The notes: generated by a model not told the origin, from the sequence alone. A stretch of 64,000 nucleotides of DNA from Sedimentisphaerales bacterium (GCA_963708075.1 OY970194.1:4384001-4448000); one strand, 5' to 3'. Positions 869 through 27,101 are shown, counted from the stretch's first letter. Program-made: numbers and translations.

Positions 869-877
869 AGGAAGGTG

Positions 878-4284: not shown

Positions 4285-4347
4285 GCACCGTGCTCCGCGC
4301 ACTGCGGATACACCAACTCAGGGCGAAAAGAACGGGACGCCAGACAA

Positions 4348-6901: not shown

Positions 6902-6920
6902 TTCCGTCAATGGAGGCATC

Positions 6921-8072: not shown

Positions 8073-8078
8073 TACAGG

Positions 8079-9545: not shown

Positions 9546-10486
9546 GGATGTCGATCGTCATATCGACGCGGAACCGCGCCGAGCAGCTTCGGTCCTGTCT
9601 GGAGGCGCTCGTTCAGCAGGACGGCGTGTCGCCGGATGCATACGAGATCATCGTCATCGATAACGGATCGATGGATGATACGGAGCAGGTCGTCGCCTCG
9701 ATCCGCCAACGGTCCAGCCAGGTCCGCTACTACTACGAAGACCGAATAGGGCTGTCCATCGCGAGAAACGCCGGAGTGCGCCTGGCGAAAGGGGACATCA
9801 TCAGCTTTGGAGATGACGACGCCATCTCCTCGCCGAGCTTCGTGGCGGAGGTCCTCGCCTCCTTTGACGATCCTCAGGTGGACTGCGTCGGAGGCAAGAT
9901 CGTGGCCTCGTGGCCCGACGGCTCCCCGCCGGCTTGGTTTGTCCCGAAGTACGGCAACGTGGTGGGACAAACCTCGTTTGGCGAAAGCGCCAGGTGGATG
10001 GAGAAGAATGAATTCCCCTTTGGCGGCAATATCTCTATCCGCAGAGATGTCTTTGAGACTCTCGGCGGGTTCAACGAGGACCTGGGCAAACGAGGGCAGA
10101 ATAACATCTGGGGGGAGGAGATCGACCTGTGCCATCGGATGCAGGAGCATGGATATCGCTTCTTCTACAACCCCCGGGCGCTCGTCTGGCACGTGGTCGG
10201 CCACCATCGAGCGACGCAAGAGTACTTCGTCGAGAGCGTCTTTGGTAAGGGAGTCACGGAGGGGTATCAGAAGCTCGCACACAAAGGGAAAGCCGTGTTC
10301 ACGTTCTACCTGCTGCTCAAAGCCGCACGCCTTGCCCTGACTTCTGTCTGCTATCTTCTGACGGGCACGCTCCAGTCCGAGACCGCCAGGTTCCAGTCGC
10401 GCTGCGCGATCGCGTGGTACACAGGATACCTGCACTTCCTGGCCGTGAAGGACAACTTCGGGTCTGTACCCGACTCCGCCGAATGA
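9542..10486 (+). CDS. Glycosyltransferase family 2
   Basis: SIVISTRNR, EIIVIDNGS, ARNAG, FGDDDA, GGF.EDLG, GEEIDL; start overlaps the upstream stop (ATGA). Confidence 0.9.
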   Translation: MRMSIVISTRNRAEQLRSCLEALVQQDGVSPDAYEIIVIDNGSMDDTEQVVASIRQRSSQVRYYYEDRIGLSIARNAGVRLAKGDIISFGDDDAISSPSFVAEVLASFDDPQVDCVGGKIVASWPDGSPPAWFVPKYGNVVGQTSFGESARWMEKNEFPFGGNISIRRDVFETLGGFNEDLGKRGQNNIWGEEIDLCHRMQEHGYRFFYNPRALVWHVVGHHRATQEYFVESVFGKGVTEGYQKLAHKGKAVFTFYLLLKAARLALTSVCYLLTGTLQSETARFQSRCAIAWYTGYLHFLAVKDNFGSVPDSAE

Positions 10487-10516
10487 GCCGATAGCCATTC
10501 AAAACGCGATCTACAA

Positions 10517-11752
10517 ATGAAGACGACTGAAATACGCAGGGGAGAATCGGACGGCAGGCTGGATGGGGCCCTCTTGATGATCTCGTACGAGGAGCTTGCA
10601 TCCCACAACGGCTTGAATACACGCATGAAGGGCATCGCACGGGAGCTGTCGGCGGCGGGACGACGCGTCGAGATCGCAGCGCCCTCGTACAGCGGCCGGA
10701 CCTTGGAAACGCCCGATCACTTTGCGGGCATACGCATCCACACGGTGCCCGTGCCCAACGTCTTCTCCAGATGGAGAATCCCCATCGTCACAAGGGTCCT
10801 GTCTGTCGCGCTGCTCACCCTGTGCATGGTGCGACGCCTTCGCCAAACCGCGGGTCCCTTCGCATGGGTCCAGTCGGAGCAGGTATATCCCTTCCCGGCG
10901 GCCTGCCTGCTCGCCCGCAAGTGGAAAGCCAGGACTATTCTCGATGACCCGTCGCTGTTAGGACTCTTCGTGGAAGAGAAACTCAGGCGCGGCCGTCTGC
11001 TGCGTCCCCTGCTCAAGAGGGCCGTCGAGCGCTTCGAGACCAGCCTCTGGCGGCGGGCGGACTGCATCCTGTGCTCCTCACAGCGCACCGCAGGCGCGAT
11101 CGGCAAACGGGTGAAGGGAGCGAAGACGACCGTATTGCGGATGTGCAACGGCGTAGATCTGAACGAGTTCACCCCCGGTCCCGGCGGCGGGCCCGGAAAC
11201 CGGCTCTTCTTCAATTGCAGCGTGCCCTACTATCAGAACATGGCGGCGCTGCGAAACTTCCTGAAGATCGTCGCACGCTTCGAGCAGGAGGCGTTTCGCA
11301 ACTACTCGGCCGTCATCGCCGTCAACGATGCAACGGCTCTGCCGGGCGATGTAACGCAGGAGATCGAGTCGAACCCGAGGGTGCGCCTGTTATCCAACGA
11401 GAAGTCACTGGTCCCGTGGCTGCATGAATCGGACCTGGTCCTGCTGCCCTACGAGAAGGGGCACCTGACGACGGCCGGACCCCGGCTCAAGGCGTTCGAG
11501 GCTTTTGCCTGCGGCAAAATCGTGCTCGGAACACAGGAGGGCCTCGACGAAATCCCCGGCTGCATCGACGGCCGCAACGTGATCCTCTGCTCCGACTGGC
11601 TCGACATGGCAGACAAAACGATGCATCTCATCACGGAAGGCGAGACCCCACGCAAACAGACGATCCGCAGCGAAGCGCGAAGGCTCGCGGAAACCGAGTA
11701 CTCGTGGCAGAGATTGGTGAAGGCGTACGATCCGATCCTCAATGGCAGATAA
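10517..11752 (+). CDS. Glycosyltransferase family 4
   Basis: NGVDL, DLVLLP, GPRLKAFEAFACGKIV, YSW C-terminus. Confidence 0.8.
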   Translation: MKTTEIRRGESDGRLDGALLMISYEELASHNGLNTRMKGIARELSAAGRRVEIAAPSYSGRTLETPDHFAGIRIHTVPVPNVFSRWRIPIVTRVLSVALLTLCMVRRLRQTAGPFAWVQSEQVYPFPAACLLARKWKARTILDDPSLLGLFVEEKLRRGRLLRPLLKRAVERFETSLWRRADCILCSSQRTAGAIGKRVKGAKTTVLRMCNGVDLNEFTPGPGGGPGNRLFFNCSVPYYQNMAALRNFLKIVARFEQEAFRNYSAVIAVNDATALPGDVTQEIESNPRVRLLSNEKSLVPWLHESDLVLLPYEKGHLTTAGPRLKAFEAFACGKIVLGTQEGLDEIPGCIDGRNVILCSDWLDMADKTMHLITEGETPRKQTIRSEARRLAETEYSWQRLVKAYDPILNGR

Positions 11753-11777
11753 TCGCGTCCGCAACAGAGGGGACTTT

Positions 11778-12896
11778 ATGCACATCGTCATGATGGGGTG
11801 CAGGGGAATTCCGGCAACCTACGGAGGCGTGGAGAAGGCGGTAGAGGAGCTTTCGGTCCGGCTGGCCAGGAAGGGCCACCGGGTGACTGTTCTGTGCAGG
11901 AGCCATTATACGCCGAAGATGAGCGAGTATGAGAATGTCCATATTGTCCGGCTCCCCACGATCCGCGAGAAGCACATCGAAATGATCCTCCATACCCTCC
12001 TGTCCACCCTGTACGTGAGCGTGAAATCGTGCGACCTCGTTCACATTCACAGCGTGGACCCGGCCATTGTCACGCCGCTCGTCAGATTGTTCCATCCCGT
12101 GGTCGCCACGTCGCATGGGCAGGCGTACCGAAGAGACAAGTGGGGCAGGATATTCAGAATGTTTTCCCGAATCGCCGAGCGGGTCTTCATTGCCACGCCC
12201 TCCAAGTGTACGGCGGTATCGAGGACCCTCTGCGACTTCTATGCCCGGAGGTACAACAAAACAGCACAGTACGTTCCCAACGGCGTGACGCCCCAGGAGC
12301 CTGTGGGGCCCGAGCCCATCAAGCAGTTCGGCCTCGACAAGGACAGCTACATCCTCTTCGTGGGAAGGCTGCTCGCCACCAAGGGGCCTAAGTTGCTCAT
12401 CGACGCCTATAAGAAGGTCAGGCCCAATCTGAAACTGGTGATCGTCGGCGGCTCGTCGCACACGGATACGTATGAGAAGATGCTCCGGAAAGAGGCGAGT
12501 GAGGACATTCTCTTCCTCGGCTACCAGTACGACGAGTGCCTCAAGGCCTTGTACTCGAATTGCCGGCTGTTCGTGTTTCCGTCGTCCATTGAAGGTCTGC
12601 CGCTGGTGCTGCTGGAGGCGCTGAGCTTCCAACGGCCGGTGTTGTTCAGCGATATCCCGGAGAACCGCGAGATCGCCGATGGGCTGGGGATCTCCTTCAA
12701 GAGCGGCGATGTGGATGATCTGGCTGAGAAACTGAGGTACGCATTATCCGACGCGAACCCGTTCAACACGCTCCTGCCGGCCATACCCGAGAGGTTATCC
12801 CGCGACTACAACTGGGATCGCGTCGTCGAGCAGTATACGAAGGTGTACCGGGACGCGCTGGCCAAGTGTGAAGTCAGTTCCGTGTCCATTGAGTAG
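11778..12896 (+). CDS. Glycosyltransferase family 4
   Basis: GCRGIPATYGGVE, LFVGRL, FVFPSSIEGLPLVLLEA, YNWD. Confidence 0.9.
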   Translation: MHIVMMGCRGIPATYGGVEKAVEELSVRLARKGHRVTVLCRSHYTPKMSEYENVHIVRLPTIREKHIEMILHTLLSTLYVSVKSCDLVHIHSVDPAIVTPLVRLFHPVVATSHGQAYRRDKWGRIFRMFSRIAERVFIATPSKCTAVSRTLCDFYARRYNKTAQYVPNGVTPQEPVGPEPIKQFGLDKDSYILFVGRLLATKGPKLLIDAYKKVRPNLKLVIVGGSSHTDTYEKMLRKEASEDILFLGYQYDECLKALYSNCRLFVFPSSIEGLPLVLLEALSFQRPVLFSDIPENREIADGLGISFKSGDVDDLAEKLRYALSDANPFNTLLPAIPERLSRDYNWDRVVEQYTKVYRDALAKCEVSSVSIE

Positions 12897-12923
12897 CCGG
12901 CAAGTGGATCTCACTTCAAAGGC

Positions 12924-15023
12924 ATGGATGTTATGCTTGCAGCAAGAACGCTTGCACTCTTCTCGATGCTGTGCCTCCTCCCCAGACCATGCGCCTGTCT
13001 CGGGCAAACGCCCCAAGTGCTGTTCATCACTCCCGGCAGTCCTGGCGCCGAGTGGCCGACAATTACCGCTCTTTGCGATCTCTATGGACTGACTTGTGGC
13101 TGGCGCTCCCCAACGCAAGCGGCCGCGGAGCTGAGTCCCTCCAAGACGGACAGACAAGCCACTCTGGCCGCCATTGTAGAGGCTTCCATTCCCGGTCCCA
13201 CGACATCCCGGTCCGATGTCACGGCCCTGTGGAAGTCCCTGCGAGCCGCCCGTATACCTGTTCTCATACTATCCACGCGGCCTTCGATGCTGTCTGTGCC
13301 CGATCCTAATGGATCGAGCGTATTCGCCAGTCTTCAGCTTGTCCGCCTGGAGAAGAAGCTGTCGTCCTGGCAAACCACACAGGCAAACCAGACGCTGATG
13401 CGGGAGCTCACGGCAGTATCAGCCGGGATCCGGCACAACGCACAGTCGAGCACGATCGTCCTCGGTTCGGCCAGCCCCGACAACAGGGTCGTACCCCTCA
13501 TGCTGGTCCGGTCCACGGATGGAACTTCGTATCCCATCTACAGCGAGATCAAAGGCACGGAGGGTCTCGTCTTCTGTGCCGCGTTCAGCCATCCTGTACC
13601 GGACGGCGGGTTCGTATTCGACCCTGAGAAGGATGGGAATCTCATCAGCATCATTCCCCTTCTGACCTTCCTGCGGTTTGCCGGCGGACCGTACTGCTGG
13701 CATCGCGGCTCGGACTGCGCCAATCTGACCATCGACGATCCCTGGCTGACGGAGCCGTACGGATTCCTCAATTACAGGGGTCTGCTGGCGCAGATGCGAA
13801 AGGCCCGCTTCCACACCACGATTGCATTCATCCCGTGGAACTACGACAGGAGCAGCGACAAGGTGGTGGCGCTCTTCCGGGAGCATCCGAAGCACTACTC
13901 CATCTGCATTCATGGAAACAATCACGATCGCTGGGAGTTCTACAAATATCACACGATCCCGGCAGATCCGCTGCCGGCCAAGCCTCTGCCTGTCCAGGAA
14001 GCTAACATCCGGCAGGGCCTTACCCGCATGGAGCAATTCAGGCAACTGACCGGCCTGGACTTCGATCCGGTCATGGTCTTTCCTCAGTACATCGCTCCCC
14101 TGGAGACCTTCGGGCTGCTGAAAAAATACAATTTCCTGATCACCTCAAACGCCACGAACATCCCCCTGAATCTTGATCCGCCGCCGGACCCCGTTTTCCA
14201 CCTTCGGTCGGTCACAGACTACTACGAAGACTTTGCCAGCGTGATAAGGTATCCGCCGGCCGACAGATCTCGGGCCGCCATCGCTCTCGACCTGTTCCTC
14301 GACAACCCGGTCCTGTTCTTCGAGCATCACACATTATTTCGGCGTGGAATAGACGCATTCAATAAGACTGCGGAGATGGTGAACGCCCTTCAGCCCGACA
14401 CGAAATGGACCAGCCTGGGCGATACGGCGCGGCACTCGCATCTGCAGAGAAGTCGTCCCGACGGCAACCTTGATATCCGGGCCTTCTGCCGAAGCATCGA
14501 CCTGGAGAACGACCAGCAACATGAGCTGACCTGTTTTGTGGAGAAAGCGGAGACACTGGACGTACCGATCCGGCATGTGCTTGTCGATGGCGCGCCTCAT
14601 ACGTATACCGTCTCCGATGGGCGACTCCGTCTCACGGTCGAGGTAGCATCGCATCAATCCCGTCGTATCGACATCGAATACGAGGACAACTTCCAGGTTG
14701 CACAGGCGGATATCGCGAAGAACGATCCTCGCGTGAACCGCATTCGCGCTCTCTCGGATTTGAGGGATTGCACCCTGATGCGAAATGTGGTGACGAGGTC
14801 GGTGGTCAGCTTCTACTACGCAAGCATGTTGTACCGGCTCGGTCTCAAAGGGGCCGCGGTCGTGTGTTTCATCGTTGCCGTCGCGGCAGCTATCGGCGGG
14901 TGGAGGCTGCGGAGATGGATGAGCCGGCGAGCTCAGCGAATGGAGATTCGACCCACTCCACCACGCGCGGCAGGAGCTATCCCTGCGAAGCAAGGACTTG
15001 AGCAGGCGCCGAATCGCACCTGA
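12924..15023 (+). CDS. Secreted/membrane-anchored polysaccharide-deacetylase-like (NodB-type) protein
   Basis: N-terminal signal-like segment, LTIDDP, IHGNNH metal motifs, C-terminal TM helix followed by a basic tail. Confidence 0.55.
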   Translation: MDVMLAARTLALFSMLCLLPRPCACLGQTPQVLFITPGSPGAEWPTITALCDLYGLTCGWRSPTQAAAELSPSKTDRQATLAAIVEASIPGPTTSRSDVTALWKSLRAARIPVLILSTRPSMLSVPDPNGSSVFASLQLVRLEKKLSSWQTTQANQTLMRELTAVSAGIRHNAQSSTIVLGSASPDNRVVPLMLVRSTDGTSYPIYSEIKGTEGLVFCAAFSHPVPDGGFVFDPEKDGNLISIIPLLTFLRFAGGPYCWHRGSDCANLTIDDPWLTEPYGFLNYRGLLAQMRKARFHTTIAFIPWNYDRSSDKVVALFREHPKHYSICIHGNNHDRWEFYKYHTIPADPLPAKPLPVQEANIRQGLTRMEQFRQLTGLDFDPVMVFPQYIAPLETFGLLKKYNFLITSNATNIPLNLDPPPDPVFHLRSVTDYYEDFASVIRYPPADRSRAAIALDLFLDNPVLFFEHHTLFRRGIDAFNKTAEMVNALQPDTKWTSLGDTARHSHLQRSRPDGNLDIRAFCRSIDLENDQQHELTCFVEKAETLDVPIRHVLVDGAPHTYTVSDGRLRLTVEVASHQSRRIDIEYEDNFQVAQADIAKNDPRVNRIRALSDLRDCTLMRNVVTRSVVSFYYASMLYRLGLKGAAVVCFIVAVAAAIGGWRLRRWMSRRAQRMEIRPTPPRAAGAIPAKQGLEQAPNRT

Positions 15024-15086
15024 CATCAGGCTGCGTGCTGAGACGCGGCCGTTTGCTGGACCTGAGGAAGACTGTCTGCTGTGGAG

Positions 15087-16181
15087 ATGGCTGGAACGAT
15101 GAGTGATCCATTCCGCCCGGAGTTGTCGCACGAGTTCTACTCTCGGATGTACCTGATCCGAACCGTGGAGAGCTCCCTGCTGGAACTGTTTGGCCGTGGT
15201 GCGATTACGGGAACCGTCCATACCTGTATCGGCCAGGAGGCCTGTGCCGTCGGCGTCGTGGACGCATTGGACAAGCATCGCGACGTCCTGTTCTCGAATC
15301 ATCGCGCTCACGGCCACTACATCGCTTACTGTGACGACGTGGAGGGCCTGATCGCGGAAATCATGGGCAGGAAGTCCGGCGTATGTGGAGGGACCGGCGG
15401 CTCACAGCATCTTCACAAGCACAACCTGTACACGAACGGGATTCAAGGCGGCATCGTTCCCAACGCGGTGGGCGCCGCCCTGGCCGCCAAGAAGCTGGGT
15501 ACCGGGGCGATCTCCGTTGTCTTCGTGGGAGACGGCACGATGGGCCAGGGCGTCGTCTACGAGAGCTTGAACGTGGCGTCGCTGTGGTCTCTGCCTGTTC
15601 TGTTCGTGCTGGAGGACAACGGATACGCGCAGACAACGCCGAAACACCTTGCCCACGCCGGGCATCTGACCGATCGCGCCAGAGCGTTCAACGTGGACGT
15701 ACAGGCAGTGGCCGCTGACGATGTTTTCGTTGTGCACGCAGCAACCGCCGAAGCGGTGAAGCAGGTGCGGGAAGCCCAACGCCCATTCTTCCTTTCGCTG
15801 AGCACGTATCGCTTGTCACCGCACAGCAAAGGCGACGATTTCCGCAGTGAGGCGGAGATCGAGTCGTATCGCGCCAAAGATCCGCTCTCGCGGTTGGCGA
15901 TGCGGATACCGGACGACGGGCGGCTTGTCATTGAGGAGCGGGCACGACAGCGAGTCCGCCGGGCGATTGAGCTGGCGCAGGAATCGGCTCCGGCAGACCC
16001 TCTTACTCCCCTGGACGGAGCATATGATGAAGCCACTGATGTACCTGGAGGCGATTCGAGGCTGTCTGCACACGTTGATGGAGGAAGATTCCGCGATCAT
16101 CCTCCTGGGCGAGGACTTGCTGGATCCGTACGGCGGGGCCTTCAAAGTGACCCAGGGGCTGTCGACGCGCTTCCCCGATAG
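15087..16181 (+). CDS. ThDP-dependent 2-oxoacid dehydrogenase E1 alpha-like subunit
   Basis: GTVHTCIGQEA, HRAHGH, GGSQH, GDG...DNGYA ThDP motif, YRLSPHSKGDD. The 3' end is uncertain (158-nt overlap with the beta gene). Confidence 0.9.
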   Translation: MAGTMSDPFRPELSHEFYSRMYLIRTVESSLLELFGRGAITGTVHTCIGQEACAVGVVDALDKHRDVLFSNHRAHGHYIAYCDDVEGLIAEIMGRKSGVCGGTGGSQHLHKHNLYTNGIQGGIVPNAVGAALAAKKLGTGAISVVFVGDGTMGQGVVYESLNVASLWSLPVLFVLEDNGYAQTTPKHLAHAGHLTDRARAFNVDVQAVAADDVFVVHAATAEAVKQVREAQRPFFLSLSTYRLSPHSKGDDFRSEAEIESYRAKDPLSRLAMRIPDDGRLVIEERARQRVRRAIELAQESAPADPLTPLDGAYDEATDVPGGDSRLSAHVDGGRFRDHPPGRGLAGSVRRGLQSDPGAVDALPR

Positions 16182-17034
16182 GGTCCTCGCAACGCCCATC
16201 TGCGAGGCCACCATCGTAGGGCTGGGGGTCGGGGCGGCTCTCCAGGGTCTGCGGCCCATCGTGGAAGTGATGTTCGGTGATTTCCTGACCCTGGCGTGCG
16301 ACCAGATCGTCAATCACGCGGTCAAGTACCAGCAGATGTATGGCTGCAGGGTCGAGGTCCCGCTGGTCATCCGGACCCCCATGGGAGGCGGGCGCGGCTA
16401 TGGACCCACGCACAGCCAGAGCATCGAGAAGCTTTTCCTTGGAGTCCCGGGACTCAGCGTGGTGTCTCCCTCGCTTTTCCACGATGCAGGCGAGTTACTC
16501 AGACAAGCGGTGGATCGTCGCAGGGTGGTGCTATTCCTCGAACATAAGCTGCTCTACCCCGAGCGGCTGATCCTGGAATCGACGGGCGGTCTGTGGCATG
16601 AAACGACGCCGGAAGCTTCGGGATTTCCCACCGTCGTGATCAGGAATTTTCGAGACTCGACTCCGGATGTGACCTTGATCTGTTATGGCGGGATCAGCCG
16701 CATGATTCCGCAGTTGCTGGCGGACATGGCCCGGGAGGAGATCAGGGTCGAAACGTGTCTGCCGGCCTGTCTTCAACCCCTGCCTGTGGCCACGATGGTC
16801 TCTCTGGTGCGACGGAGCAAGAGAGCGGTGGTGATTGAGGAAGGCACGACAGGGTACGACTGGGGGGCGGAAGTGAGCAGTCAGTTGCACAAGTACCTGT
16901 GGGGCGTCCTGGAGCGCCCCGTCGCACGGGTGGGCTCGCTGCCTACCGTGATCCCGACATCGAGGGAAGCCGAGGAGCGTATGCTGGTTTCTCAGGAGAC
17001 AATCAGTACTGCCATATTGGAGGTGTTGCAGTGA
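16024..17034 (+). CDS. 2-oxoacid dehydrogenase E1 beta-like subunit
   Basis: GED...GGAFKVT.GL, TPICE, RPIVEVMFGDF, DQIVN, GPTHSQ, EHKLLY. Confidence 0.9.
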   Translation: MMKPLMYLEAIRGCLHTLMEEDSAIILLGEDLLDPYGGAFKVTQGLSTRFPDRVLATPICEATIVGLGVGAALQGLRPIVEVMFGDFLTLACDQIVNHAVKYQQMYGCRVEVPLVIRTPMGGGRGYGPTHSQSIEKLFLGVPGLSVVSPSLFHDAGELLRQAVDRRRVVLFLEHKLLYPERLILESTGGLWHETTPEASGFPTVVIRNFRDSTPDVTLICYGGISRMIPQLLADMAREEIRVETCLPACLQPLPVATMVSLVRRSKRAVVIEEGTTGYDWGAEVSSQLHKYLWGVLERPVARVGSLPTVIPTSREAEERMLVSQETISTAILEVLQ

Positions 17035-18209
17035 TGAATCGATCCATCGTGCTTCTTCCTCGTATTAGCCCGAACGAGGATGCGGCGATCATCATCGAAT
17101 GGACCAAATCCGAGGGGGATCACGTACGCGCGGGGGAAGTGGTCTGCGCGGCGGAGACGACGAAGTCCCTCTTCGATGTGGAGGCGGATGCGGAAGGCTA
17201 TCTGTTCATCCTGATGCAGGCGGGGGCTGAGGCCGCCGTCGGACAACCACTGGCCGTCATTTCCAGCGACCAGCATGACACGCCGGAGGCAATCCACGCA
17301 TGGATCGCCAGTACGGCATCCCCATCGGCTTCGCCGTCCGATACGAGAGCGGAGCGGACCTGGACACAGAAGGCGGAGCTCCTTGCGCACCGTCACGGGA
17401 TCGATCTGGCCCAGGTGCCATCAAGCGGAGGAAGAATCGGCGAGTCGGATGTCCTGGCCTACCTGGAAAGCCGAGCGGGCCGACCCGCCGCGGCCGCACA
17501 GGAACATCGGGACATCGTGGATGGCACGTACCAAACCGGACGAGTGGATCGCCTGCTCATTGTCGGCGGCGGGGATGGCGCGGTGCAGCTCCTGGATGCC
17601 ATTTTCAAATCAGGCAAGCAACGTGCAGTGGCTATCCTGGACGACAACGCGAGCTTGCACGGCAAGACCATCATGGGGGTGCCTGTCGTCGGGCCGATTC
17701 AGGAAGACCTGGTGGCCGGCATGCTGGAGAAGGACGAATTCGATCACGCCGTGATTTCCATCAGTACGCTCATCCCGCTTCGCCGACGGATTTTCGAGCA
17801 ATTGACGCGCAGAGGCGTGCCCTTTGCAAATGTGATTCACCCCACCGCCTGCATCGGCGCCAATGTGAGCATTGGCCGCGGGAACGTCATCCTCGGCTTC
17901 TGCCATATCGGGGCCTGCGCCACCATCGGCGACAACAACTTCCTCAGCGCATACGTGAGCATCGAGCATCACAACGAGATTGCCAACCACTGCAGCTACG
18001 GACCTGCGGTGGTGGCGTCGAGCCGGGTCAAGGTGGGCGACTGCACCCGTTTCGGAACGGGCGTATTCATGGAGCCCAAGATCAGCATCGGAGCCAATTC
18101 GGTGATCGGCTCCGGCTGCATCCTGCGAGGCAACGTCCCCGCCGATTCGGTGGTCCGGACCCAATTGAACTACGTGACACGACCATTAAGACCAATCGAG
18201 CAACCATAG
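17034..18209 (+). CDS. Fusion: lipoyl domain + E3/peripheral-subunit-binding domain + PglD/NeuD-type hexapeptide acyltransferase
   Basis: EGDHVRAGEVVCAAETTKS (lipoyl Lys); AELLAHRHGIDLAQVPSSGGRIGESDV (PSBD-like); LLIVGGGDGA..ILDDN..GVPVVG (PglD N-domain); NVIHPTA and hexapeptide repeats with SIEHH. GGAGG RBS. Confidence 0.8.
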   Translation: MNRSIVLLPRISPNEDAAIIIEWTKSEGDHVRAGEVVCAAETTKSLFDVEADAEGYLFILMQAGAEAAVGQPLAVISSDQHDTPEAIHAWIASTASPSASPSDTRAERTWTQKAELLAHRHGIDLAQVPSSGGRIGESDVLAYLESRAGRPAAAAQEHRDIVDGTYQTGRVDRLLIVGGGDGAVQLLDAIFKSGKQRAVAILDDNASLHGKTIMGVPVVGPIQEDLVAGMLEKDEFDHAVISISTLIPLRRRIFEQLTRRGVPFANVIHPTACIGANVSIGRGNVILGFCHIGACATIGDNNFLSAYVSIEHHNEIANHCSYGPAVVASSRVKVGDCTRFGTGVFMEPKISIGANSVIGSGCILRGNVPADSVVRTQLNYVTRPLRPIEQP

Positions 18210-18231
18210 GAGACCGCAAAGGAGGAGTCAT

Positions 18232-19378
18232 ATGATGCATGTACCGCTTCTTGACCTCGGTGCACAGTACAGGTCGATTCGTGACGAGCTTACCCCGGCC
18301 CTGCAAAGTGTGCTGGAGAGCACAGCGTTTGCGGGCGGGCCGTTTGTGGCCACGTTCGAGAAGGAGTTCGCCGCCTACTGCGGGTGCGAGCAGGCCCTCG
18401 GGGTCAGCAGCGGCACGTCCGCGCTCTGGCTTGCCCTTGTCGGACTCGGCGTAGGGGCCGGCGACGAGGTCATCACGACCCCGAATACATTCATCGCCAC
18501 AGCCGAAGCCATCAGCTTCTGCGGCGCTACCCCGGTGTTCGTCGATGTGGACCCTGAGAACCTGTACGATGGACCCGGACCTTCTGGAGCCCGCGATCAC
18601 TTACCGCACAAAAGCTATCATTCCCGTTCATCTGTACGGTCAACCAGCGGACATGGACCCGATCCTCGCCGTGGCCAGGCGCCACGGGCTGCTCGTCATC
18701 GAGGATGCCTGCCAGGCACACGGGGCCGAGTACAAGGGCCGAAAGGCCGGCACACTCGGCGACGCAGGCTGCTTCAGTTTCTACCCGGGCAAGAACTTGG
18801 GAGCCTACGGCGAGGCGGGCGCGGTGGTCACGAACGATGCCGAACTGGCCCAGAAGATCCGCATGCTTCGCGACCACGGCCAGAGCGAGAAATACAAGCA
18901 CGCCGTGATCGGCTGGAATGACCGCATGGACGGCCTGCAGGGCGCGGTCCTGAGCGTCAAACTCAGGCATCTCGACGAGTGGAACGATGCCCGACGGGAG
19001 CGCGCCGGTTTCTACGACGAGCTCCTGGAGGATTTGCCGCACATCGTGCTTCCCCGCGAGGCCCCCTATGCCCGGCACGTCTACCATATCTTCGCCGTCC
19101 GCGTGCCGAATCGGGACAAATTCCTTGCAGCACTGAATAATTGGGGCATCGGATGCGCGATTCATTATCCCGTGCCCATCCACCTCCAAAAGGCCTACGA
19201 ATTCCTCGGCTATCGAAAGGGCAGCTTCCCCGTAGCGGAGAGAATCGCCCAGGAGGTCCTCTCCCTCCCCATGTACCCCGAGATGACGATACGACAACTG
19301 GAGACGGTCGCCGATGCGCTCGCATCTCTGCTGAGAACGCGGGAGTTCTCCGCCCCGACCCCGGCTCATGCCATATAG
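18232..19378 (+). CDS. DegT/DnrJ/EryC1/StrS PLP-dependent sugar aminotransferase (frameshift ~18559)
   Basis: N-terminus in ORF 18232 (SGTSAL, GDEVIT.PNTFIAT); C-terminus in ORF 18545 (PVHLYGQ, IEDACQAHG, SFYPGKNLG). One extra base near 18559. Confidence 0.9.
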
Positions 19379-19384
19379 CCGCGC

Positions 19385-21112
19385 TTAGCGGGCGGGGAAA
19401 CGCAGCAGGGTGATGCTCAGCGGGGCCACCTGCAATGAAGGGTCGTGGCGCACCGGCTGTTCCACAATCTTCACCTGTTCGCCGCCATTGTCGTTGGTCC
19501 ACGAGGGATCGACCTTCCACATCGCCTCGGCCACCTGATTATGCTTGAGCGTGTACTGGCTCAATTGCATGAAGCCCAATTGCCAGGGGCCCCACATCTC
19601 ATTTCCCACGCACCAGTACTTCACGCTATACGGCTTGGCATGGCCATTCTTCGCGCGCCAACTTCCGCCGACCGTATCGGCCGACCCGTTACAGTATTCG
19701 ACCTCTTGAGCGGCCGAATAGGCATCGCCGAAGCCGGTATTCACTGCGATCACAGGCTCGGTCCCCACCTCGCGGCAGAAATCGATGAACTCATCCAGCC
19801 CGAAATCGTTGTGCTCGACGCCGGTCCATGCGGGGTTCTTGCGAGGCGGCCGACGGTCGCGGTCGCCGATGCCGTCACGCCAGTCGTAACCGCTGACGAA
19901 ATTACCGCCGGGCCAGCGATACATCGTCCCGCCGAGTTGCCGGAGCCGCTTGAGCGTGTCGGCCCGCATGCCACGGATGTTGTCGGCGAGCATGAGGGAG
20001 GCTGTGCCGATCAGCACCTCGCCTCGTGTGACACGGATCTCCAGCATCGCCTTGTCCGCATCTGCACCGGCGGTGAATTTCAATGGATGCTTGCGGTACT
20101 TGCGATTGAGGCCGTCGATGCGAATGGTCTTACGGGCATTGGCCCCCTCGCCCCAGACCAGCGTGACATCCACCGAGGCCGTGGACCTCGGCGCAGCCAG
20201 CCAGATATAGCCAACGTAGTCTTTGCCCTTCACAACGCCCAGGTCGCGCTGTCGAAGGCCAGCGCCGGAGCGGACCTGGGGCGTGTGCTTGCCCACAAAC
20301 GGGTCCTTCTCCACCATGGTCACCGCCTCCGCCGGCCCGATGATCTCCCATGGCGACGCACCGACGACCGGGAACGGCGTATCCGTCAACTCGCGGTAGG
20401 GCTTGTACTCGGCGGTGATCGGGAAGTAGAACTTGCGGTCTTCGAGCATCTCGGCCCAGATGCCGCCGTAGATGCACCGGCCCAGGTGCTCGATGAATTG
20501 GCCGTAGATGAACGGGTTGATCGGCGAGCCTGAACGATCCGTACGAAGCGTCACAACAGGCACAAAGCCCGTCAGGTCGAGCTTCTCCAGACTGACATCA
20601 TCGAACCACGCCTGTCCCGTGGATTGGCCCCAGCCGCCGAGGAGGCAGTGGACGCTGATCTGACGCTGGTCGCCGGTGCGCACCAGGCTCTCAACACGAG
20701 TCCACCCTGCGGAGCCTGTGACGGCGGTTGTACGGGCACTCCCCTGCAACTCATGGACATTCAGCAGCGCTCCACGTCCGGACCCACTCTTGAGGCCCTC
20801 GGTTCGAATCCAACCCGAGAGTCGATACGTGCTGTTCGGCTCCACCTCGATCCTGGCCACCCAACACACGTCTCCGCCTTTGTCGGACCGAATCGTGACA
20901 CACTTGCCGCCCGTTCTGCCGCCATCGACGCAGCGGAACCGGCCCTCGCCGCCCCATGTGTGCGGGGTCCACCCGATCGGCTGATCACCACCCTGCTCGA
21001 ACGAGGGGTTGGGCAGGAGATTCGGCCCTTGCGCGGAAACGGACACGGTGGGCACACTCTGCGATAGCAGCATTGTGACGAGCCATCCGATGGTACAGCA
21101 CATCTGTCTCAT
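19385..21112 (-). pseudogene. Secreted CBM-like + GH51 alpha-L-arabinofuranosidase with a large in-frame internal deletion
   Basis: AGGAGG RBS and signal peptide; NLLPNPSFE CBM4/9-like domain; IYGQFIEHLGRCIYGG, RWPGGNF, WCVGNE. Jumps from KVDPS straight to a C-terminal strand (VAPLSITLLRF); no nucleophile (DEW-type) region. Confidence 0.7.
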
Positions 21113-21293
21113 TGAGCGACCTCCTGTGCCATGAAAGGAAGTGTAATCCCGAAACGAGTATGTCCCTGCTCTCACAATGAAACGAGCGTTCGACCGGACC
21201 TTTATAACGCAAAGGCGGGGCTTGTGCCAGTTGTCTGGCACAGGCCCCGCCAGGAATCCAAGTCATGGGGGAGACCGTGTGAGCTTACCGCCC

Positions 21294-24200
21294 TTACGGA
21301 GCAACCGCGGCGGAGCGGCCGAATCCGATATCATCGATGAAGAGTGTGCCGGTGCCAGTTGCCGAGGTTTTCTTGCGGTCGCCCACGCCGATGTACATTG
21401 TCTTAATTGCCGTGACATTGACTCCGCCGCTGCGGAGATCAGCCAGCGGAATGTTCCATGCCTGCCACGCATTCTGTAGCACCGCATCCGCATCCGGGTG
21501 ATTCACAACCATGGTGTGACCGGCGCTATCCTTCAGAGCAAGGTAGAGATTGTCGCGGTCGTTCAACTTGTGGTCGATGCCGATCTCGGCAAACTGCCAT
21601 GCCCCGGTTGCCCCGACACTTGTTGAGGCATTCGAGAACACGCCGGTGGTTCCCCTGCTGACATTGTGGCTGGTCACCGCGAGGCCGACATAGATGGTCC
21701 CCGCCATGCTGATCGTCTGGGGATTCCACGACATCGCCGTCCACTTGGAGCCATCTGTCGAGTAGTAGGCGCTAAACGCGCTGCCGACGCGTTCCATCTT
21801 CACCCACACGGGAGCCTGCAACGCGATCTGCTCTGCCGTCGCCACGCTCGTGTCGCTCGTCGCCGAGGCGGCGGCCGTCAATCTCGCCTGGAATCGCACG
21901 CCGTTTCCAGGCGTTGCGTATACACCGGCAAACTGCGCGTCCGGCGACAGGCTCTGGCGAATCATCACGCCGGCCTTGGCCCAGGGATCGGTATTCTCAA
22001 TGCTGTCCACCCGGGCGATGATCGAGCCGTCGCCGTTGAGCGACTTGTAGGCGAAGGTGAATTGATCGGCGGTGCCGAAGATGTCCGACCCGCCCGCACC
22101 CATGGTGATACTGCCGGATGGGCTCTGGATGAACCCGACCGGATTGCCCTGGAACCATACCTGGAGAGTGTCGGCGCCGTTGAGCGTCCAGTTCTGAGGC
22201 GTCTCCCAGATCCGCTCGATTTCCGAGTAGTACGGTGAATTGACGTTGTTGTACTCCACGGGCATCGACTGCTTGCCACCGTGGATGATCACAGTCTCCA
22301 TAATGGAGCCGACCTCGGGATTATAGCCGATCATCGAGCCGGTTGAGTTGCCCGGGTTACCCGTCGGGAAGAACTCGTCCTCGGAGAAGCCCCAGCCGTC
22401 GATCCAGGTCTGGAAGACCCGGTTCGGCGACTCATTCGTGTAGCTCTCGAAGTCGTCGATGGGGAAGTACTCCAGCGTGGAGAAACTCCACACGTCGCCT
22501 TCCCATGCACTGGGGGTCACCGCCTGGTTGACCTCCACGACCTTCCAGTAGTAGGTCTTTCCCACCTCAAGGTTGAGCGAGGCCGGATCATAGCTGTTCG
22601 GGCTCACTGTACCCACCAGGGCTGTACTATCCACCACCGCCTGCCTGTCGGCACTGAAGTATACCTCGTGTGATGCGGCGTCCCTTCCCCCTCGCCAGCT
22701 CAGGACCGCATTGGGGTTCACGCCGGTTCCGCCCGAGGCGGGTACCGGCTCGGTGGCGTGGGCCGGGATGTAGAAGAACTTCACTTCGCTCAGACCATAT
22801 TGCTTCGTGACATCGGCCCAGTTGCTCGTGGGAGTCAGCTTAACGTACATGGCCGCTACACCGCGGAAATCCAGGGTCGTATTCTGAGCGTAGCCTTCCG
22901 CAGATGTGCCCTGGGCAAATTCGAAATCGCCCAGCGGCAGCCAATCCGTGCCGTTGACGGAGTACTCTACCGTGACGGCCTTGAAGCCCGCGCCGAGAAC
23001 GGACTCGATGCCTATGTTATAGTTCCAAATCCGCATCTCGTGGAGCTTATAGACTCTGTCGAACTGGTACTCAATCCAGGTGGGCTGTGGACCGCCCTTG
23101 GCGCTGAGCCACATGGTCTTATCCACCGTCGAGTGCAGGCCGTTGTCATCCAGTCCCGAGCCATTGACCGTATTCTCCGGCCCTCCCGACGCGCTGGAGC
23201 TCGATGCCGTGGCAACGATGTTCTTGACTTCGCGGGCGAAGGGCTCGACCGTGAAGCTCCAGACAGCGCCCGTGTGCACCATAGAATCAGGCGGGCCATT
23301 GACCTCATCGACGCGCCAGTAGTACGTCCGGCCATACTCAAGGTGGCCGGGCGGGTCGTAGCTGTTGGCATCCTGATGTAAGCTCATCAGCACCGTCGGT
23401 GAGCCACCGGCACCGGCGGCGCTGACGCTCTCCAGGGAGGTCCCGAAGTACACGTCGTGCGCCACAGCGACGCTCGCCGGACTCCAGCCCAGGACCACAT
23501 CGCGACAGACATCCGTCGCCTCGTCCGCCGGATTCGGGTCACGAGCCTGCGCCGGCGCGGCTCCGACCTCGCCCTCCAGCTTCGCTCCTCCCTGGCCGGT
23601 GTTCCAGTCCACTTCGCGAATCATGGCGCTCTGACCCACCGGAGCAGACAACAGCAGGACGATGATCCCATCCGTATCGGTATTGACGAAATCCGCAAGG
23701 GCCTGACTCGTCGGGCTTGACGCCCTTACGTCCACCGCCGGCGTGCGAAAGCTCAGCAGCGGGCCGACGAGGTCGGCCATATCAAGCTCCACGGGGGCGC
23801 TGAGAGCCGGAGCCGGATCATTCTTGACTCCGGGTGCCGTGTTCCACGTGAGATTCTGAAAATCTGCGACCGTGTGATCCTGACTCTCAATGACCCCGTA
23901 TACATCCACGTCGCCGGCGCCATACCCGTACACGCTGATGCTCACGTTGGAGACGACGCCCCCGCTGCTTCGAATCGAGGAGATGTCGAACTTGAGAAAT
24001 CCCACCCGCCGCCTGGGTGCGTCGATGTTCCGGATATGGATCGCGGGCGTATTGTAGACGGTGCTGGGCCCATACTGGGAATCATTGCACACGTGCCCAT
24101 CATCGACCACCAACAGACTGAAGGGCGTGGCTCCCCAAAGACCACTGCCCAGGCTCAGCAACGTAACAAGGCAGACTGCGAATACACGCGGTTTCGACAT
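21294..24200 (-). CDS. Secreted modular protein (variable N-domain + Ig-like + discoidin/F5-8-like + Ig-like + CBM-like), paralog A
   Basis: Signal peptide; GFLKFDIS N-domain (DNRLRE/CBM96-like); HDVYFGT..TYYWRVDEVN; ATASS..WIEYQFD..GLSEV; DDFESY..FQTWIDG. Confidence 0.8.
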   Translation of the reverse strand: MSKPRVFAVCLVTLLSLGSGLWGATPFSLLVVDDGHVCNDSQYGPSTVYNTPAIHIRNIDAPRRRVGFLKFDISSIRSSGGVVSNVSISVYGYGAGDVDVYGVIESQDHTVADFQNLTWNTAPGVKNDPAPALSAPVELDMADLVGPLLSFRTPAVDVRASSPTSQALADFVNTDTDGIIVLLLSAPVGQSAMIREVDWNTGQGGAKLEGEVGAAPAQARDPNPADEATDVCRDVVLGWSPASVAVAHDVYFGTSLESVSAAGAGGSPTVLMSLHQDANSYDPPGHLEYGRTYYWRVDEVNGPPDSMVHTGAVWSFTVEPFAREVKNIVATASSSSASGGPENTVNGSGLDDNGLHSTVDKTMWLSAKGGPQPTWIEYQFDRVYKLHEMRIWNYNIGIESVLGAGFKAVTVEYSVNGTDWLPLGDFEFAQGTSAEGYAQNTTLDFRGVAAMYVKLTPTSNWADVTKQYGLSEVKFFYIPAHATEPVPASGGTGVNPNAVLSWRGGRDAASHEVYFSADRQAVVDSTALVGTVSPNSYDPASLNLEVGKTYYWKVVEVNQAVTPSAWEGDVWSFSTLEYFPIDDFESYTNESPNRVFQTWIDGWGFSEDEFFPTGNPGNSTGSMIGYNPEVGSIMETVIIHGGKQSMPVEYNNVNSPYYSEIERIWETPQNWTLNGADTLQVWFQGNPVGFIQSPSGSITMGAGGSDIFGTADQFTFAYKSLNGDGSIIARVDSIENTDPWAKAGVMIRQSLSPDAQFAGVYATPGNGVRFQARLTAAASATSDTSVATAEQIALQAPVWVKMERVGSAFSAYYSTDGSKWTAMSWNPQTISMAGTIYVGLAVTSHNVSRGTTGVFSNASTSVGATGAWQFAEIGIDHKLNDRDNLYLALKDSAGHTMVVNHPDADAVLQNAWQAWNIPLADLRSGGVNVTAIKTMYIGVGDRKKTSATGTGTLFIDDIGFGRSAAVAP

Positions 24201-24245
24201 ACCACAATCCTCCGAAAATACAAGACCTTTCACACGTCTTCCACC

Positions 24246-27101
24246 CTACGGGGCAGTCGCGGGCCGACCGAACCCGATATCGTCAATGAACAACAATCCC
24301 GCCCCGCCGGCGGATGCGTTCTTGCGATCGCCGACGCCGATGAACATCTTCTTGATCCCCTTGGTATCGACGCCCGATTTGCGGAAATCAGCCAGCGGGA
24401 TATTCCACTCCTGCCAGGTGTCCAGCAGCACGGCATCCGGATTCGGATGAGTCACGACGCCGGTGTGTCCGGCGCTGTCCTGCAGAACGACATACAGGCT
24501 GCCCCGGTCGTTGAGCAGATGGTCCACCCCAATCTCGGCGAATTTCCACGCGCCGCTGACACCGCCGCTTGTGGCGGCATTGGAGAACTGGGCCGTGCAG
24601 CCGACTCCGGCCGCATGGCTGGTCAACGCCAGACCGACGAATACGTTCGCGGTCATTGGAATCGACAGAGATGACGGCGACGCCGGATCCGTCGGCTCGA
24701 CCATGGGCTCCCACTTGACTCCGTCGCTCGAATGAGCGGCCGTGATCGTGTCGCCGTCACGGGTGATTCGGAGCCAGTGCGGCAAGGTGATCGCGCCGGG
24801 GTCGCTGCGCGTGCTGTCGGAGGTGCCCATGAGCTGCTGGCGGTACTGCCAGCCGACACGGCCGTCGGGCGTAACATAGGCCATCCCGTTCTTGGAATCG
24901 GCGCCAAGGTTGTCGCGAATCATCACGCCGGCCTTGGCCCACACATCGGTCTGCTCCACGCTATCGACGCGGACGGTGATCGAGCCATTGCCGTTGAGCG
25001 GCTTGTAGGCATAGGTGAATTCGTCGGCGACGTCGAAGATGTCCGCCCCGGCGGCACTCATGGTGATGGTTCCCGCCTTCTCTTCGAAGCCGATCGGATT
25101 GCCCCGGAAGAAGACCTGCAGCGTGTCGGAGCCGTAGACTGTCCAATCCTGGGGCGTGTCAAAGGTCCGCTCGGCCTCGGAATAGTACGGCTGATTGACG
25201 TTGTTGTATTCCAGCGGCATGGCCTGCCTGCCGCCATGGATAATGGTCTTCTCCAGGGTCGCGCCTGCCTCAGGATCATAGCCGACCATGGAGCCCGTGT
25301 TGTTGCCGGGATTGCCCTTGGGGAAGTACGGGTCCTCCGAGAAGCCCCAGCCGTCAATCCAGGTCTGGAAGACCCGGTTCGGCGAGTCATCCGTGTAGCC
25401 CTCGAAATCATCCACGAGGAAGAAGCTCAGCGTGGAGAAGCTCCAGACGCTGCCCGGCCATGCGCCGGGGCTGGCAGCCTCGTTCACCTCGACCACTTTC
25501 CAGTAATAGGTCTTGCTCAGCTCGATGGCCGAAGGCGTGTAGCGTGCCTCAGTCGGTTTGCCGGCCAGAGCCACCCCGTCTGCCACGGCCTGGCTATCCG
25601 TGCTGAGGTACACCTCGTGCACGGCAGCTTCTCGTCCCGGCCGCCAGCTCAGGACGACATCCGGATTCACACCCGTCGCTCCGGAAGCCGGATTCGGCTG
25701 CCGGGGCTGGGCCGCGATGTAGTAGAATCGCACCTCGCTCAGGCCGTACTGGATGATCCCTCTGTCACCCCAGTTGCTCTTGATCGTCAGCCGAACATGC
25801 TTGGCCGCCACGCCGTCAAAGCTCACGGTCGTGTTGAACGCATATCCCTCCTCGCCCGGGGCTTGGGCGAACTGCCTGTCGCCAAGCGACATCCAGTCCG
25901 TGCCGTTGACGGAGTACTCCACGGTGACATCCTTGACGCCGAAACCGGCGATGGACTCGACCGAGATGTTATAGTTCCACACGCGCATCTCGTGCAGCTT
26001 GTAGATCCCGTCGAACTCGTACTGAATCCAGGTCGGCGCCGGAGCGTCCTTCACGCTGAGCCACATCGTGGTATCGACCATCGAATGCTGCTCACTGGCG
26101 TTCATCCCGGACCCGTTGACCGTGTTCTGAGGCGTCAAGCCCTCTTTGGTGGTGGAGGCTGTGGCGGTGATGTTCGCCATCAGGTACATGAACGGCTCGA
26201 CGGTGAAGCTCCACACGCCGCCTCTGTGAATCGTGGAATCCGGGGGTGCATTGACCTCATCGATCCGCCAGTAATAGGTCTTGTCGAGTTCGAGCCGTCC
26301 GGGCGGGTCATAGGTGTTGGCGTCTTGTCCCTGGCTCACCAGTACGCCCAGAGGATTCGCCCTGCTGGCGTTGGTCACGTCGGCGAGGACCGTCCCGAAA
26401 TAGACGTCGTGCGTCACGGCAAAAGGCCCGGGCTTCCAGCCAAGGATTACCTCCCTCGGCACATCCGTTGCACCACCGGCCGGACTGGGGACCAGGGCGC
26501 TGGCCGGCACGCCGCGAGGGCTTTCCGCCGGACCGTCGCCCTCGGGCGTGAAGTCCGGATTCGTCGTCACGACAATCTTGTCGACGATCAGACCATCCTC
26601 ACGCACCCAGAGATTCAGGGTATGCGTACCGGGGGTGGTAATGTCAAGCGTAGCCCGCCCGCCGGAGCGATTGTTGGACCACGCGTAGACAACGTTCCAG
26701 CCGCTCATCCACTCAGCGGTCAGGGTCTCCTTGCCGTCCAGGCCCACGTGGCAGGAATCGTCGTTGCCCGTGGCGCCGAAGGCCCGCACCCACACATAGT
26801 GCGTCCCGGTCGTGACGAAATTGATCTGATAGCCCAGGCTCGGGGATGACGCGGCATACCCCGTCTTGATGACGCCTGCGCCATTGCATTGCATGCCTTT
26901 GACGCCGGTGAAACCGCCCGTCGGCCCGACCTCCACCCATTTCACCGTGCCCTTGGCGATGTTCTCATCGAAGTGCTCTGCCTCCATGGACACCATGCCA
27001 CCGGCCCCCCCATCCTGCTGGAATGGCTTGGCGGCTTGCACCCTTGTGCCCACGACGAACAACAAAGCCAGACAGGTAAGATAGAACGACGGCTTACACA
27101 T
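24246..27101 (-). CDS. Secreted modular protein, paralog B
   Basis: GAGGAGG RBS; signal peptide; MEAEHF..REDGLIVDKIV beta-sandwich N-domain; same conserved core as paralog A. Confidence 0.8.
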   Translation of the reverse strand: MCKPSFYLTCLALLFVVGTRVQAAKPFQQDGGAGGMVSMEAEHFDENIAKGTVKWVEVGPTGGFTGVKGMQCNGAGVIKTGYAASSPSLGYQINFVTTGTHYVWVRAFGATGNDDSCHVGLDGKETLTAEWMSGWNVVYAWSNNRSGGRATLDITTPGTHTLNLWVREDGLIVDKIVVTTNPDFTPEGDGPAESPRGVPASALVPSPAGGATDVPREVILGWKPGPFAVTHDVYFGTVLADVTNASRANPLGVLVSQGQDANTYDPPGRLELDKTYYWRIDEVNAPPDSTIHRGGVWSFTVEPFMYLMANITATASTTKEGLTPQNTVNGSGMNASEQHSMVDTTMWLSVKDAPAPTWIQYEFDGIYKLHEMRVWNYNISVESIAGFGVKDVTVEYSVNGTDWMSLGDRQFAQAPGEEGYAFNTTVSFDGVAAKHVRLTIKSNWGDRGIIQYGLSEVRFYYIAAQPRQPNPASGATGVNPDVVLSWRPGREAAVHEVYLSTDSQAVADGVALAGKPTEARYTPSAIELSKTYYWKVVEVNEAASPGAWPGSVWSFSTLSFFLVDDFEGYTDDSPNRVFQTWIDGWGFSEDPYFPKGNPGNNTGSMVGYDPEAGATLEKTIIHGGRQAMPLEYNNVNQPYYSEAERTFDTPQDWTVYGSDTLQVFFRGNPIGFEEKAGTITMSAAGADIFDVADEFTYAYKPLNGNGSITVRVDSVEQTDVWAKAGVMIRDNLGADSKNGMAYVTPDGRVGWQYRQQLMGTSDSTRSDPGAITLPHWLRITRDGDTITAAHSSDGVKWEPMVEPTDPASPSSLSIPMTANVFVGLALTSHAAGVGCTAQFSNAATSGGVSGAWKFAEIGVDHLLNDRGSLYVVLQDSAGHTGVVTHPNPDAVLLDTWQEWNIPLADFRKSGVDTKGIKKMFIGVGDRKNASAGGAGLLFIDDIGFGRPATAP

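Follow-up and report, generated by a model that had tools for sequence, protein, structure and literature searches.

We analysed a 64,000-nt stretch of the genome of a Sedimentisphaerales bacterium (GCA_963708075.1, OY970194.1:4384001-4448000; hereafter the window), in which four tightly packed genes on the + strand close a run of upstream glycan genes. They encode the alpha and beta subunits of an E1 of the 2-oxoacid dehydrogenase type, an E2-like fusion protein and a DegT/DnrJ/EryC1 aminotransferase. An initial annotation had read this set as a repurposed 2-oxoacid dehydrogenase complex, in which the E2 catalytic domain is replaced by a sugar N-acyltransferase that takes its acyl group from the lipoyl arm and not from coenzyme A (CoA). 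We confirmed the four genes at that place and on that strand, and the polysaccharide setting claimed for them is likewise found, with the glycan genes lying upstream on the same strand. E1alpha, the thiamine diphosphate (ThDP)-binding subunit, occupies 15081-16181 (PF00676, E 1.2e-58), and position 15087 is an in-frame ATG inside this open reading frame (ORF). It is followed at 16024-17034 by E1beta, which carries the pyrimidine-binding (PF02779, E 6.1e-31) and C-terminal (PF02780, E 2e-13) domains and has its likely start at 16024 (MMKPL). The ATG of the fusion gene (17034-18209, 391 aa) overlaps the E1beta stop codon (TGATG), with a GGAGG 11 nt upstream of the fusion start, and the DegT gene (18232-19378, in two frames; PF01041, E 1.2e-31 in the N-terminal and 4.1e-89 in the C-terminal portion) begins 22 nt after the fusion and is preceded by AGGAGG.

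The two E1 genes overlap. The E1alpha frame has no stop codon at the E1beta start and overruns E1beta by about 158 nt (16024-16181) in a different frame, giving E1alpha a tail of 50 residues, and in the third frame a TGATGA is placed exactly at the ATGATG of E1beta. The same overlap occurs in a relative from an independent metagenome (locus L097, 2-250), and it is probably real.

The fusion joins the N-terminal part of an E2 to a sugar acyltransferase. Its residues 1-80 (17034-17273, + strand) form a lipoyl domain, matched by Biotin_lipoyl (PF00364) over residues 8-76 at E 2.2e-10, and residues 108-148 (17355-17477) form a peripheral-subunit-binding domain (PSBD). These are followed by a PglD_N-like Rossmann domain (residues 172-260) and a left-handed beta-helix (residues 265-391), together encoded at 17547-18206, with PglD_N (PF17836) matching residues 173-257 and Hexapep (PF00132) found at E 1e-9. 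Three of the four domain families named in the initial annotation were thus recovered by Pfam, and the fourth, E3_binding, was not, its E of 0.012 falling under the Pfam cut-off. The PSBD emerged instead from profile-profile comparison with hhalign: a profile of 89 family members could be aligned with canonical E2s along a stretch, residues 3-148, that takes in the PSBD (probability 99.6%, E 1.5e-23). The best family-level match of the C-terminal half, TIGR03570 (NeuD/PglB/VioB family), has an E of 3.5e-39 and stays below its cut-off (134.5 vs 160.8 bits). No match to the E2 catalytic domain, 2-oxoacid_dh (PF00198), was obtained in the fusion at E values up to 10; the same model matches two canonical E2s elsewhere in the same genome.

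Structure prediction gave the same picture. In the AlphaFold model of the fusion (mean predicted local distance difference test score, pLDDT, 79) a lipoyl domain modelled at pLDDT above 90 is followed by a disordered linker, a two-helix PSBD (helices at residues 112-120 and 137-147), a second linker, the Rossmann domain and the beta-helix. Foldseek placed the N-terminus with E2 lipoyl domains at template modelling (TM) scores of 0.75-0.86, and the C-terminal half with the perosamine N-acetyltransferase PerB at TM 0.83-0.84 and a root-mean-square deviation of 2.5 A, with further matches to PglB-ATD, VioB and PglD. The replacement of the E2 catalytic domain by a PglD/NeuD-type Rossmann and beta-helix unit is borne out by both the missing PF00198 match and the fit to PerB. 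By phmmer the fusion matches PerB (4ea7) at E 1.2e-17, and the closest solved structures to its C-terminal half are nucleoside diphosphate (NDP)-amino-sugar N-acetyltransferases, acting on 4-amino sugars. One candidate was dropped during this comparison: Pcryo_0637 had been considered as a member of a 3-amino pathway, and the abstract of PMC8040287 describes a 4,6-dehydratase and a 4-amino sugar.

Both residues expected to carry the chemistry are conserved, as had been anticipated for the lipoyl lysine and the histidine of the EH dyad. The ETTK motif spans fusion residues 41-44, and the alignment of the lipoyl domain with canonical E2s makes K44 (codon 17163-17165) the predicted lipoylation site; of the 64 copies whose N-terminus is intact, every one has the lysine of the E-[TS]-x-K motif. 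The SIEHH motif spans residues 309-313, and its H312 (codon 17967-17969), kept in all 72 fusion copies, aligns with the PerB histidine position occupied by N in 4eaa, an entry whose title gives an H141N mutant. In the PSBD, residues T111, K113 and A114 are invariant across the family.

The PSBD may also contact the E1 encoded beside it. Modelled together, the E1beta dimer and fusion residues 100-160 gave a score of 0.64, against 0.00 for the best of three controls; 116 of 157 solved complexes and 2 of 215 mismatched pairs come up to this mark. Three runs agreed in at least 94% of contacts, with a partner pLDDT of at least 72. On the fusion side the predicted contacts lie at residues 111-114, 116, 119 and 136-137, including the invariant T111, K113 and A114, and on the E1beta side at C-terminal residues 215, 237-240, 332 and 335-336. 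Since E1-PSBD complexes have already been solved, the score may reflect likeness to them rather than binding.

The fusion is a widespread protein and not an assembly artefact. A word-indexed search returned 390 relatives, and almost every one of the best 120 is full length. When 1.84 billion representatives were searched exhaustively, 292 clusters (50% identity) were obtained at E <=1e-30, most of the best 150 matching over fusion residues 5-385 or so. A scan of species genomes located 72 fusion loci, and the family occurs in at least 12 phyla, among them Chloroflexota, Acidobacteriota, Planctomycetota, Armatimonadota, Verrucomicrobiota, Bacteroidota, Actinomycetota, Bacillota, Thermodesulfobacteriota, Pseudomonadota and Bdellovibrionota. 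Source annotations of the relatives are generic ('biotin/lipoyl-containing protein', 'NeuD family O-acyltransferase', even GlmU). Among 30 relatives of the window genome, 18 from its genus and 12 from its order, none has a full-length fusion, and the nearest copy to the window E1alpha comes from Ktedonobacterales (68% identity) and not from Planctomycetaceae; the module of E1 and fusion genes is therefore an accessory gene set in this genome, probably acquired by transfer.

Linkage of the fusion to E1 holds in other genomes as well. The sequence upstream of the fusion is 2200 nt or longer in 61 loci, and in 56 of these E1alpha and E1beta directly precede the fusion gene; in several loci the two subunits are fused as one protein. 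Of the five exceptions, L060 has its E1 3.5 kb upstream, and the other four genomes all carry a cassette-type E1alpha elsewhere (61-64% identity vs <=40% for housekeeping copies). Across the 72 loci (992 kb in all) we found no canonical E2 catalytic domain, dihydrolipoyl dehydrogenase (E3), LipB or LipA, leaving the fusion as the sole lipoyl partner near the cassette E1. Fused forms longer than 685 aa were not found either, which is weak evidence. Within the window, too, no E3 gene was found, as the initial annotation had stated. The housekeeping E3 that it invoked is present outside: the genome has a single match above the TIGR01350 cut-off, at 1552626-1553972, followed by LipB and LipA, with the window at 4384001-4448000. 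A housekeeping pyruvate dehydrogenase (PDH) operon likewise lies far from the window.

The E1 of this cassette is distinct from that of central metabolism. Both subunits stay below the cut-offs of the PDH equivalog models (E1alpha, TIGR03182, 242.6 vs 393.85 bits; E1beta, NF006667, 192.6 vs 321 bits), and the nearest solved structure to E1alpha is human PDH E1alpha (E 4e-45). The GDG...N ThDP motif is kept and the histidine of ...YRLSPHS... aligns with the human GHS motif, and in the alignment to Geobacillus E1beta ...PICE... and ...THSQS... are retained. In a tree, cassette E1alphas formed one clade (Shimodaira-Hasegawa-like approximate likelihood ratio test, SH-aLRT, 100; branch 0.72) separate from 12 housekeeping paralogues of six genomes, three of which also hold a PDH E1alpha above the family cut-off.

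Searching 401 Actinomycetes genomes with the cassette E1alpha, we obtained matches at E <=1e-55 in 22. The fifteen hits outside the cassette of Actinoplanes itself share 44-48% identity with the query, vs 38-42% for housekeeping copies. Fourteen of these places were retrieved and eight were scanned with Pfam, with ORFs chosen by a third-codon-position GC filter. In the scanned loci an E1 is followed by a protein with lipoyl and canonical E2 domains, and acyl carrier protein (ACP), KASIII, nonribosomal peptide synthetase (NRPS) modules and ABC transporters adjoin; in L163 and L165 the lipoyl/E2 protein is fused to E1beta (779 and 860 aa; pyrimidine-binding/TK_C/lipoyl/2-oxoacid_dh). This is the architecture of the Nap and Qnc cassettes, by which, and not by authentic QncN or NapB sequences, the loci were recognised. 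The loci have the NapB/NapD/NapC/NapE and DinU/S/T/Q gene set that PMC7570522 lists, and the domain order that PMC6335953 gives for QncN/L/M; according to the two papers, such enzymes make a glycolic/hydroxyethyl C2 unit from a ketose phosphate, e.g. xylulose 5-phosphate. In L164, L170 and L173 (actinomycete genomes G310, G420 and G278) a Nap/Qnc-like E1 and a canonical lipoyl-E2 have a GH1 glycosidase and a transposase of the IS605 OrfB type as neighbours, not NRPS genes.

In a tree of 101 E1alpha rows, the 14 actinomycete and 62 cassette rows fell in one clade (SH-aLRT 100, branch 0.68) against 25 housekeeping rows; no result depends on L156, a housekeeping row whose genome is unpublished. 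A separate clade for the cassette E1s was not rejected (approximately unbiased test, p 0.54), and a sister as well as a nested arrangement of the cassette and Nap/Qnc-type groups fits the data. Residues T48, Q109 (GGS-Q-H), Y160 and F203 are common to cassette and Nap/Qnc-type E1alphas, where housekeeping copies have L, M, H and Y. The Qnc and Nap systems had been brought in initially as a comparison; the shared clade makes the relationship closer than analogy. Because of this shared clade, glycolyl is a serious candidate for the acyl group, with acetyl from pyruvate as the default alternative.

Gene neighbourhoods point to amino-sugar pathways in many loci. Of the 72 loci, 42 contain one or more genes for sugar or glycan enzymes. 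In 44 loci the sequence extends 5 kb to either side; 13 of these have a DegT no more than 1.5 kb from the fusion, and 30 have one within 8 kb. The kind of pathway varies. In L002, L029, L041 and L066 the module stands with a GFO-type oxidoreductase and DegT, L066 having a UDP-sugar 6-dehydrogenase as well; in Bacteroides cutis the gene order is three FdtA-type isomerases, E1, fusion, DegT; L050 has a 4,6-dehydratase, an epimerase-like gene, a C-methyltransferase and DegT; and L045 and L063 have radical-SAM enzymes and a cytidylyltransferase. Pfam scans of 13 sugar-context loci revealed no Hexapep or GNAT-type protein other than the fusion in 12 of them; the fusion occupies the slot that an N-acetyltransferase (WbpD, FdtC, PglD) has in such pathways. 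To judge by gene content, the module is portable between types of amino-sugar pathway, standing in for the N-acetyltransferase. In L066, of Chryseobacterium hispalense (3723-4910), a DAO-type FAD oxidoreductase lies between the UDP-sugar dehydrogenase and DegT. GFO-type 3-dehydrogenases give 2-hydroxyglutarate, which such an oxidase could recycle.

From these observations on domain make-up, conservation, gene linkage and E1 kinship, we propose that the module is a self-contained machine, derived from a 2-oxoacid dehydrogenase, that acylates amino sugars from a lipoyl arm without CoA. An E1 alpha/beta heterotetramer with ThDP would form the acyl group, either acetyl, from pyruvate, or glycolyl, with a ketose phosphate as the source as in its nearest relatives, and would reductively acylate the lipoyl group on K44 of the fusion. 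E1 would be tethered to the fusion by the PSBD, and the fusion itself is probably a trimer like other beta-helix acyltransferases. The lipoyl arm would then enter the PglD/PerB-type active site, where, with H312 as base, the dihydrolipoyl thioester would give up its acyl group, with no CoA intermediate, to the amino group of the NDP-amino sugar that DegT produces; a housekeeping E3 would finally re-oxidise the reduced arm. We put the probability of this reading at roughly 55%. A more specific version, in which E1 cleaves a C2 unit from a ketose phosphate and oxidises it to glycolyl on the lipoyl arm, for direct transfer by the PglD-type domain, so that NDP-amino sugars for the cell surface are N-glycolylated without oxygen or CoA, is a tentative proposal, possible if doubtful. 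Overall, the interpretation given in the initial annotation is partly supported by sequence, structure prediction, phylogeny and gene context.

Several points weigh against acylation directly from the lipoyl arm. We infer every chemical step of the scheme, including the donor, the acceptor, the identity of the acyl group and the CoA-free hand-over, and this reliance of the chemistry on inference counts against it. The PerB alignment spans most of the beta-helix, with no evident loss of the CoA site and no evident deletion, so acetyl-CoA may still be used. The module is never accompanied by an E3 of its own in the 72 loci, and turnover would depend on an E3 that is assumed to act in trans. Linkage of the fusion to DegT, expected from the initial annotation, held in part: DegT was detected in only 35 of the 72 loci. 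In the window itself the DegT gene is frameshifted as assembled, and no gene for a keto-sugar-forming enzyme was found. Finally, some loci lie outside any sugar context. Eleven Caldilineae-type Chloroflexota loci (L005, L009, L010, L011, L013, L014, L016, L022, L023, L025 and L038) stand beside an aldo/keto reductase with no sugar gene within 8 kb, and in L017 (3874-9212), L030 (315-4090) and L037 the fusion follows genes for an enoyl-CoA hydratase, an amidase and a DAO-type FAD oxidoreductase. These last three have no adjacent E1, and a cassette-type E1alpha is found elsewhere in each genome. The Caldilineae-type loci usually have a Fumble-type (pantothenate-kinase-like) gene and sometimes TetR, MFS or thioesterase genes. 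On the E1alpha tree they are nested within sugar-context Chloroflexota copies, suggesting that their non-sugar context is a derived state.

The strongest challenge comes from the C-terminal half itself, which aligns along its length with the CoA-using PerB, PglB-ATD, VioB and PglD, with the catalytic histidine kept and no evident deletion in the region aligned with PerB. The beta-helix could accordingly be that of an ordinary acetyl-CoA-dependent sugar N-acetyltransferase, and the E1, lipoyl and PSBD part could acetylate CoA bound at the site, as a shuttle, or serve in regulation or as a scaffold. We think this unlikely, as it leaves unexplained why the lipoyl lysine (64/64) and a dedicated E1 clade (adjacent in 56/61 loci, elsewhere in the genome in 4/4) should be conserved in at least 12 phyla when every cell already has acetyl-CoA. 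Alternatively, the beta-helix might be a non-homologous replacement of the E2 core that passes its acyl group on to CoA, the module then being a catabolic or supply dehydrogenase complex that makes acyl-CoA and does not modify sugars. Such a role would suit the eleven Caldilineae-type loci, which lack sugar genes and have aldo/keto reductase, Fumble-type kinase, TetR, MFS or thioesterase genes; one family member, L072, matches Pfam CoA_binding_3 in its Rossmann part, and AcoC offers a case in which the E2 core is replaced by another fold. These same loci are nested inside the sugar-context Chloroflexota on the E1alpha tree, however, 12 of the 13 sugar-context loci hold no other Hexapep or GNAT-type protein to consume an acyl-CoA, the nearest solved relatives are all NDP-amino-sugar N-acetyltransferases, and the carrier genomes already have a canonical PDH. 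We rate this explanation as slightly more improbable than the first.

Least probable in our estimate is that the acyl group leaves the lipoyl arm for an acceptor other than the DegT product, such as a sugar hydroxyl (as in the NeuD annotation), a lipid-linked glycan or a small molecule. The idea draws on the best NCBIfam match, whose NeuD/PglB/VioB family includes O-acetyltransferases, albeit at the sub-threshold score given above, and on the lack of DegT in about half of the loci and of a keto-sugar-forming enzyme in the window. It sits poorly with the frequency of DegT close by (13/44 and 30/44 loci at the two distances), with the gene order of Bacteroides cutis, and with the action of the closest solved structures on 4-amino sugars.

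Acylation of an amino sugar from the lipoyl arm would combine traits of several known systems. The cassettes of tetrahydroisoquinoline and scleric-acid pathways (Nap, Qnc, SclQ1-4 and Din) are alike in that an E1-like ThDP enzyme and a lipoyl arm load a biosynthetic acyl unit outside central metabolism. They differ in keeping a canonical E2 catalytic domain and in passing the unit to an ACP for an NRPS, whereas the module here has a sugar acyltransferase and lies in a glycan cluster. The genes fill 15081-19378 and leave no space for one encoding an ACP, and Pfam scans of the cassette loci (ORFs of at least 100 aa) turned up no PP-binding protein. With the complexes of the PDH and branched-chain 2-oxoacid dehydrogenase type, the module shares the E1 folds and motifs, the lipoyl domain and PSBD of the fusion, and E3, LipB and LipA in the genome. 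Unlike them, the fusion has no 2-oxoacid_dh catalytic domain, so that no 24- or 60-mer core is expected, and the cassette E1 differs from PDH in scoring below the equivalog cut-offs, in its separate clade and in having no linked E3 in any of the 72 loci.

PglD, PerB, VioB and PglB-ATD resemble the fusion in their Rossmann-like N-domain and left-handed beta-helix, the aligned catalytic histidine and the neighbouring DegT, but the fusion has about 170 extra N-terminal residues (lipoyl and PSBD), a dedicated E1 upstream and a sub-threshold TIGR03570 score. Known members of the PglD/PerB type use acetyl-CoA, according to the abstract of PMC8040287 and the titles of PDB entries. A lipoyl acyl loader, of either the 2-oxoacid dehydrogenase or the Nap/Qnc type, whose acceptor module is a sugar acyltransferase would appear to be new. 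We found no publication on a lipoyl-PglD/NeuD fusion, on an E1 in O-antigen clusters or on a sugar version of the C2-unit module in a search outside which subscription journals lay; the 'lipoylation' of PMC4875605 is fatty acylation and unrelated to the lipoyl fusion. The AcoC protein of acetoin dehydrogenase is another lipoyl-bearing E2 whose catalytic part has a different fold. Its acceptor is CoA, and the AcoC-type model NF011457 matches the fusion only in the lipoyl part (residues 4-114). LpxA and LpxD, beta-helix acyltransferases that use thioesters held by a carrier protein, provide a precedent for a donor other than CoA.

If the module does work from the lipoyl arm, the swinging-arm chemistry of central metabolism and a few antibiotic pathways would have a further use in the tailoring of bacterial surface glycans, delivering an acyl group directly to a sugar acyltransferase, and lipoyl-protein would become a third kind of thioester donor, after CoA and ACP, for left-handed beta-helix acyltransferases. 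It would also explain a gene triad that annotation pipelines name only generically. Because the cassette E1 is akin to the Nap/Qnc E1s, unusual N-acyl groups, possibly N-glycolyl, would be predicted on the polysaccharides of many uncultured and some cultured bacteria. Should the N-glycolyl version hold, it would represent a widespread bacterial route to N-glycolyl sugars, in at least 12 phyla, that is unrelated to the known hydroxylase routes.

The break in the window DegT comes from one extra base at about 18559 (GAGAACC), which splits the gene into ORFs 18232-18921 and 18545-19378. In the relatives L095 and L096 (82-83% nucleotide identity) DegT is in one frame, the L096 ORF having 381 aa, and the window DegT without the extra base also has 381 residues. 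A near-identical contig of the freshwater-sediment run X2 (337 nt, with one other difference from the window) is shorter than the window by exactly one base at 18559; run X1, the closest, likewise near-identical and possibly from the source sample, has no coverage of 18322-18623. As neither the X2 contig nor L095 and L096 has the extra base, we favour an assembly error in this 7.5-Mb single-contig genome as the probable cause, the alternative being a real strain difference.

Upstream of the four genes, the glycan genes on the + strand (875-15023) encode heparinase II/III-like, PGA_cap, Wzx, Wzy-like, GT2 and two GT4 proteins, together with proteins of 471 aa (2869-4284) and 699 aa (12924-15023), the latter directly upstream of E1alpha. 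No Pfam or NCBIfam family matched either of these two, and no relative of the 699-aa protein was found among the 72 fusion loci. Neither this neighbour nor the glycosyltransferases of the window are conserved beside the module, tblastn giving only scattered glycosyltransferase hits. Downstream, the regions 19385-27122 (- strand), 30689-33811 and 35730-37667 are densely packed with genes for large proteins that look secreted and carry domains of the F5/8 type C, DUF1349, GH115_C, LamG and arabinofuranosidase kinds, and this set suggests polysaccharide degradation. A DUF1559/N-methyl protein is encoded at 28394-29191 and a DDE_Tnp_1 transposase at 37739-39172 (- strand). The GC content falls to 0.52-0.55 over 56-60 kb (56001-60000), vs about 0.61 in the rest of the window.

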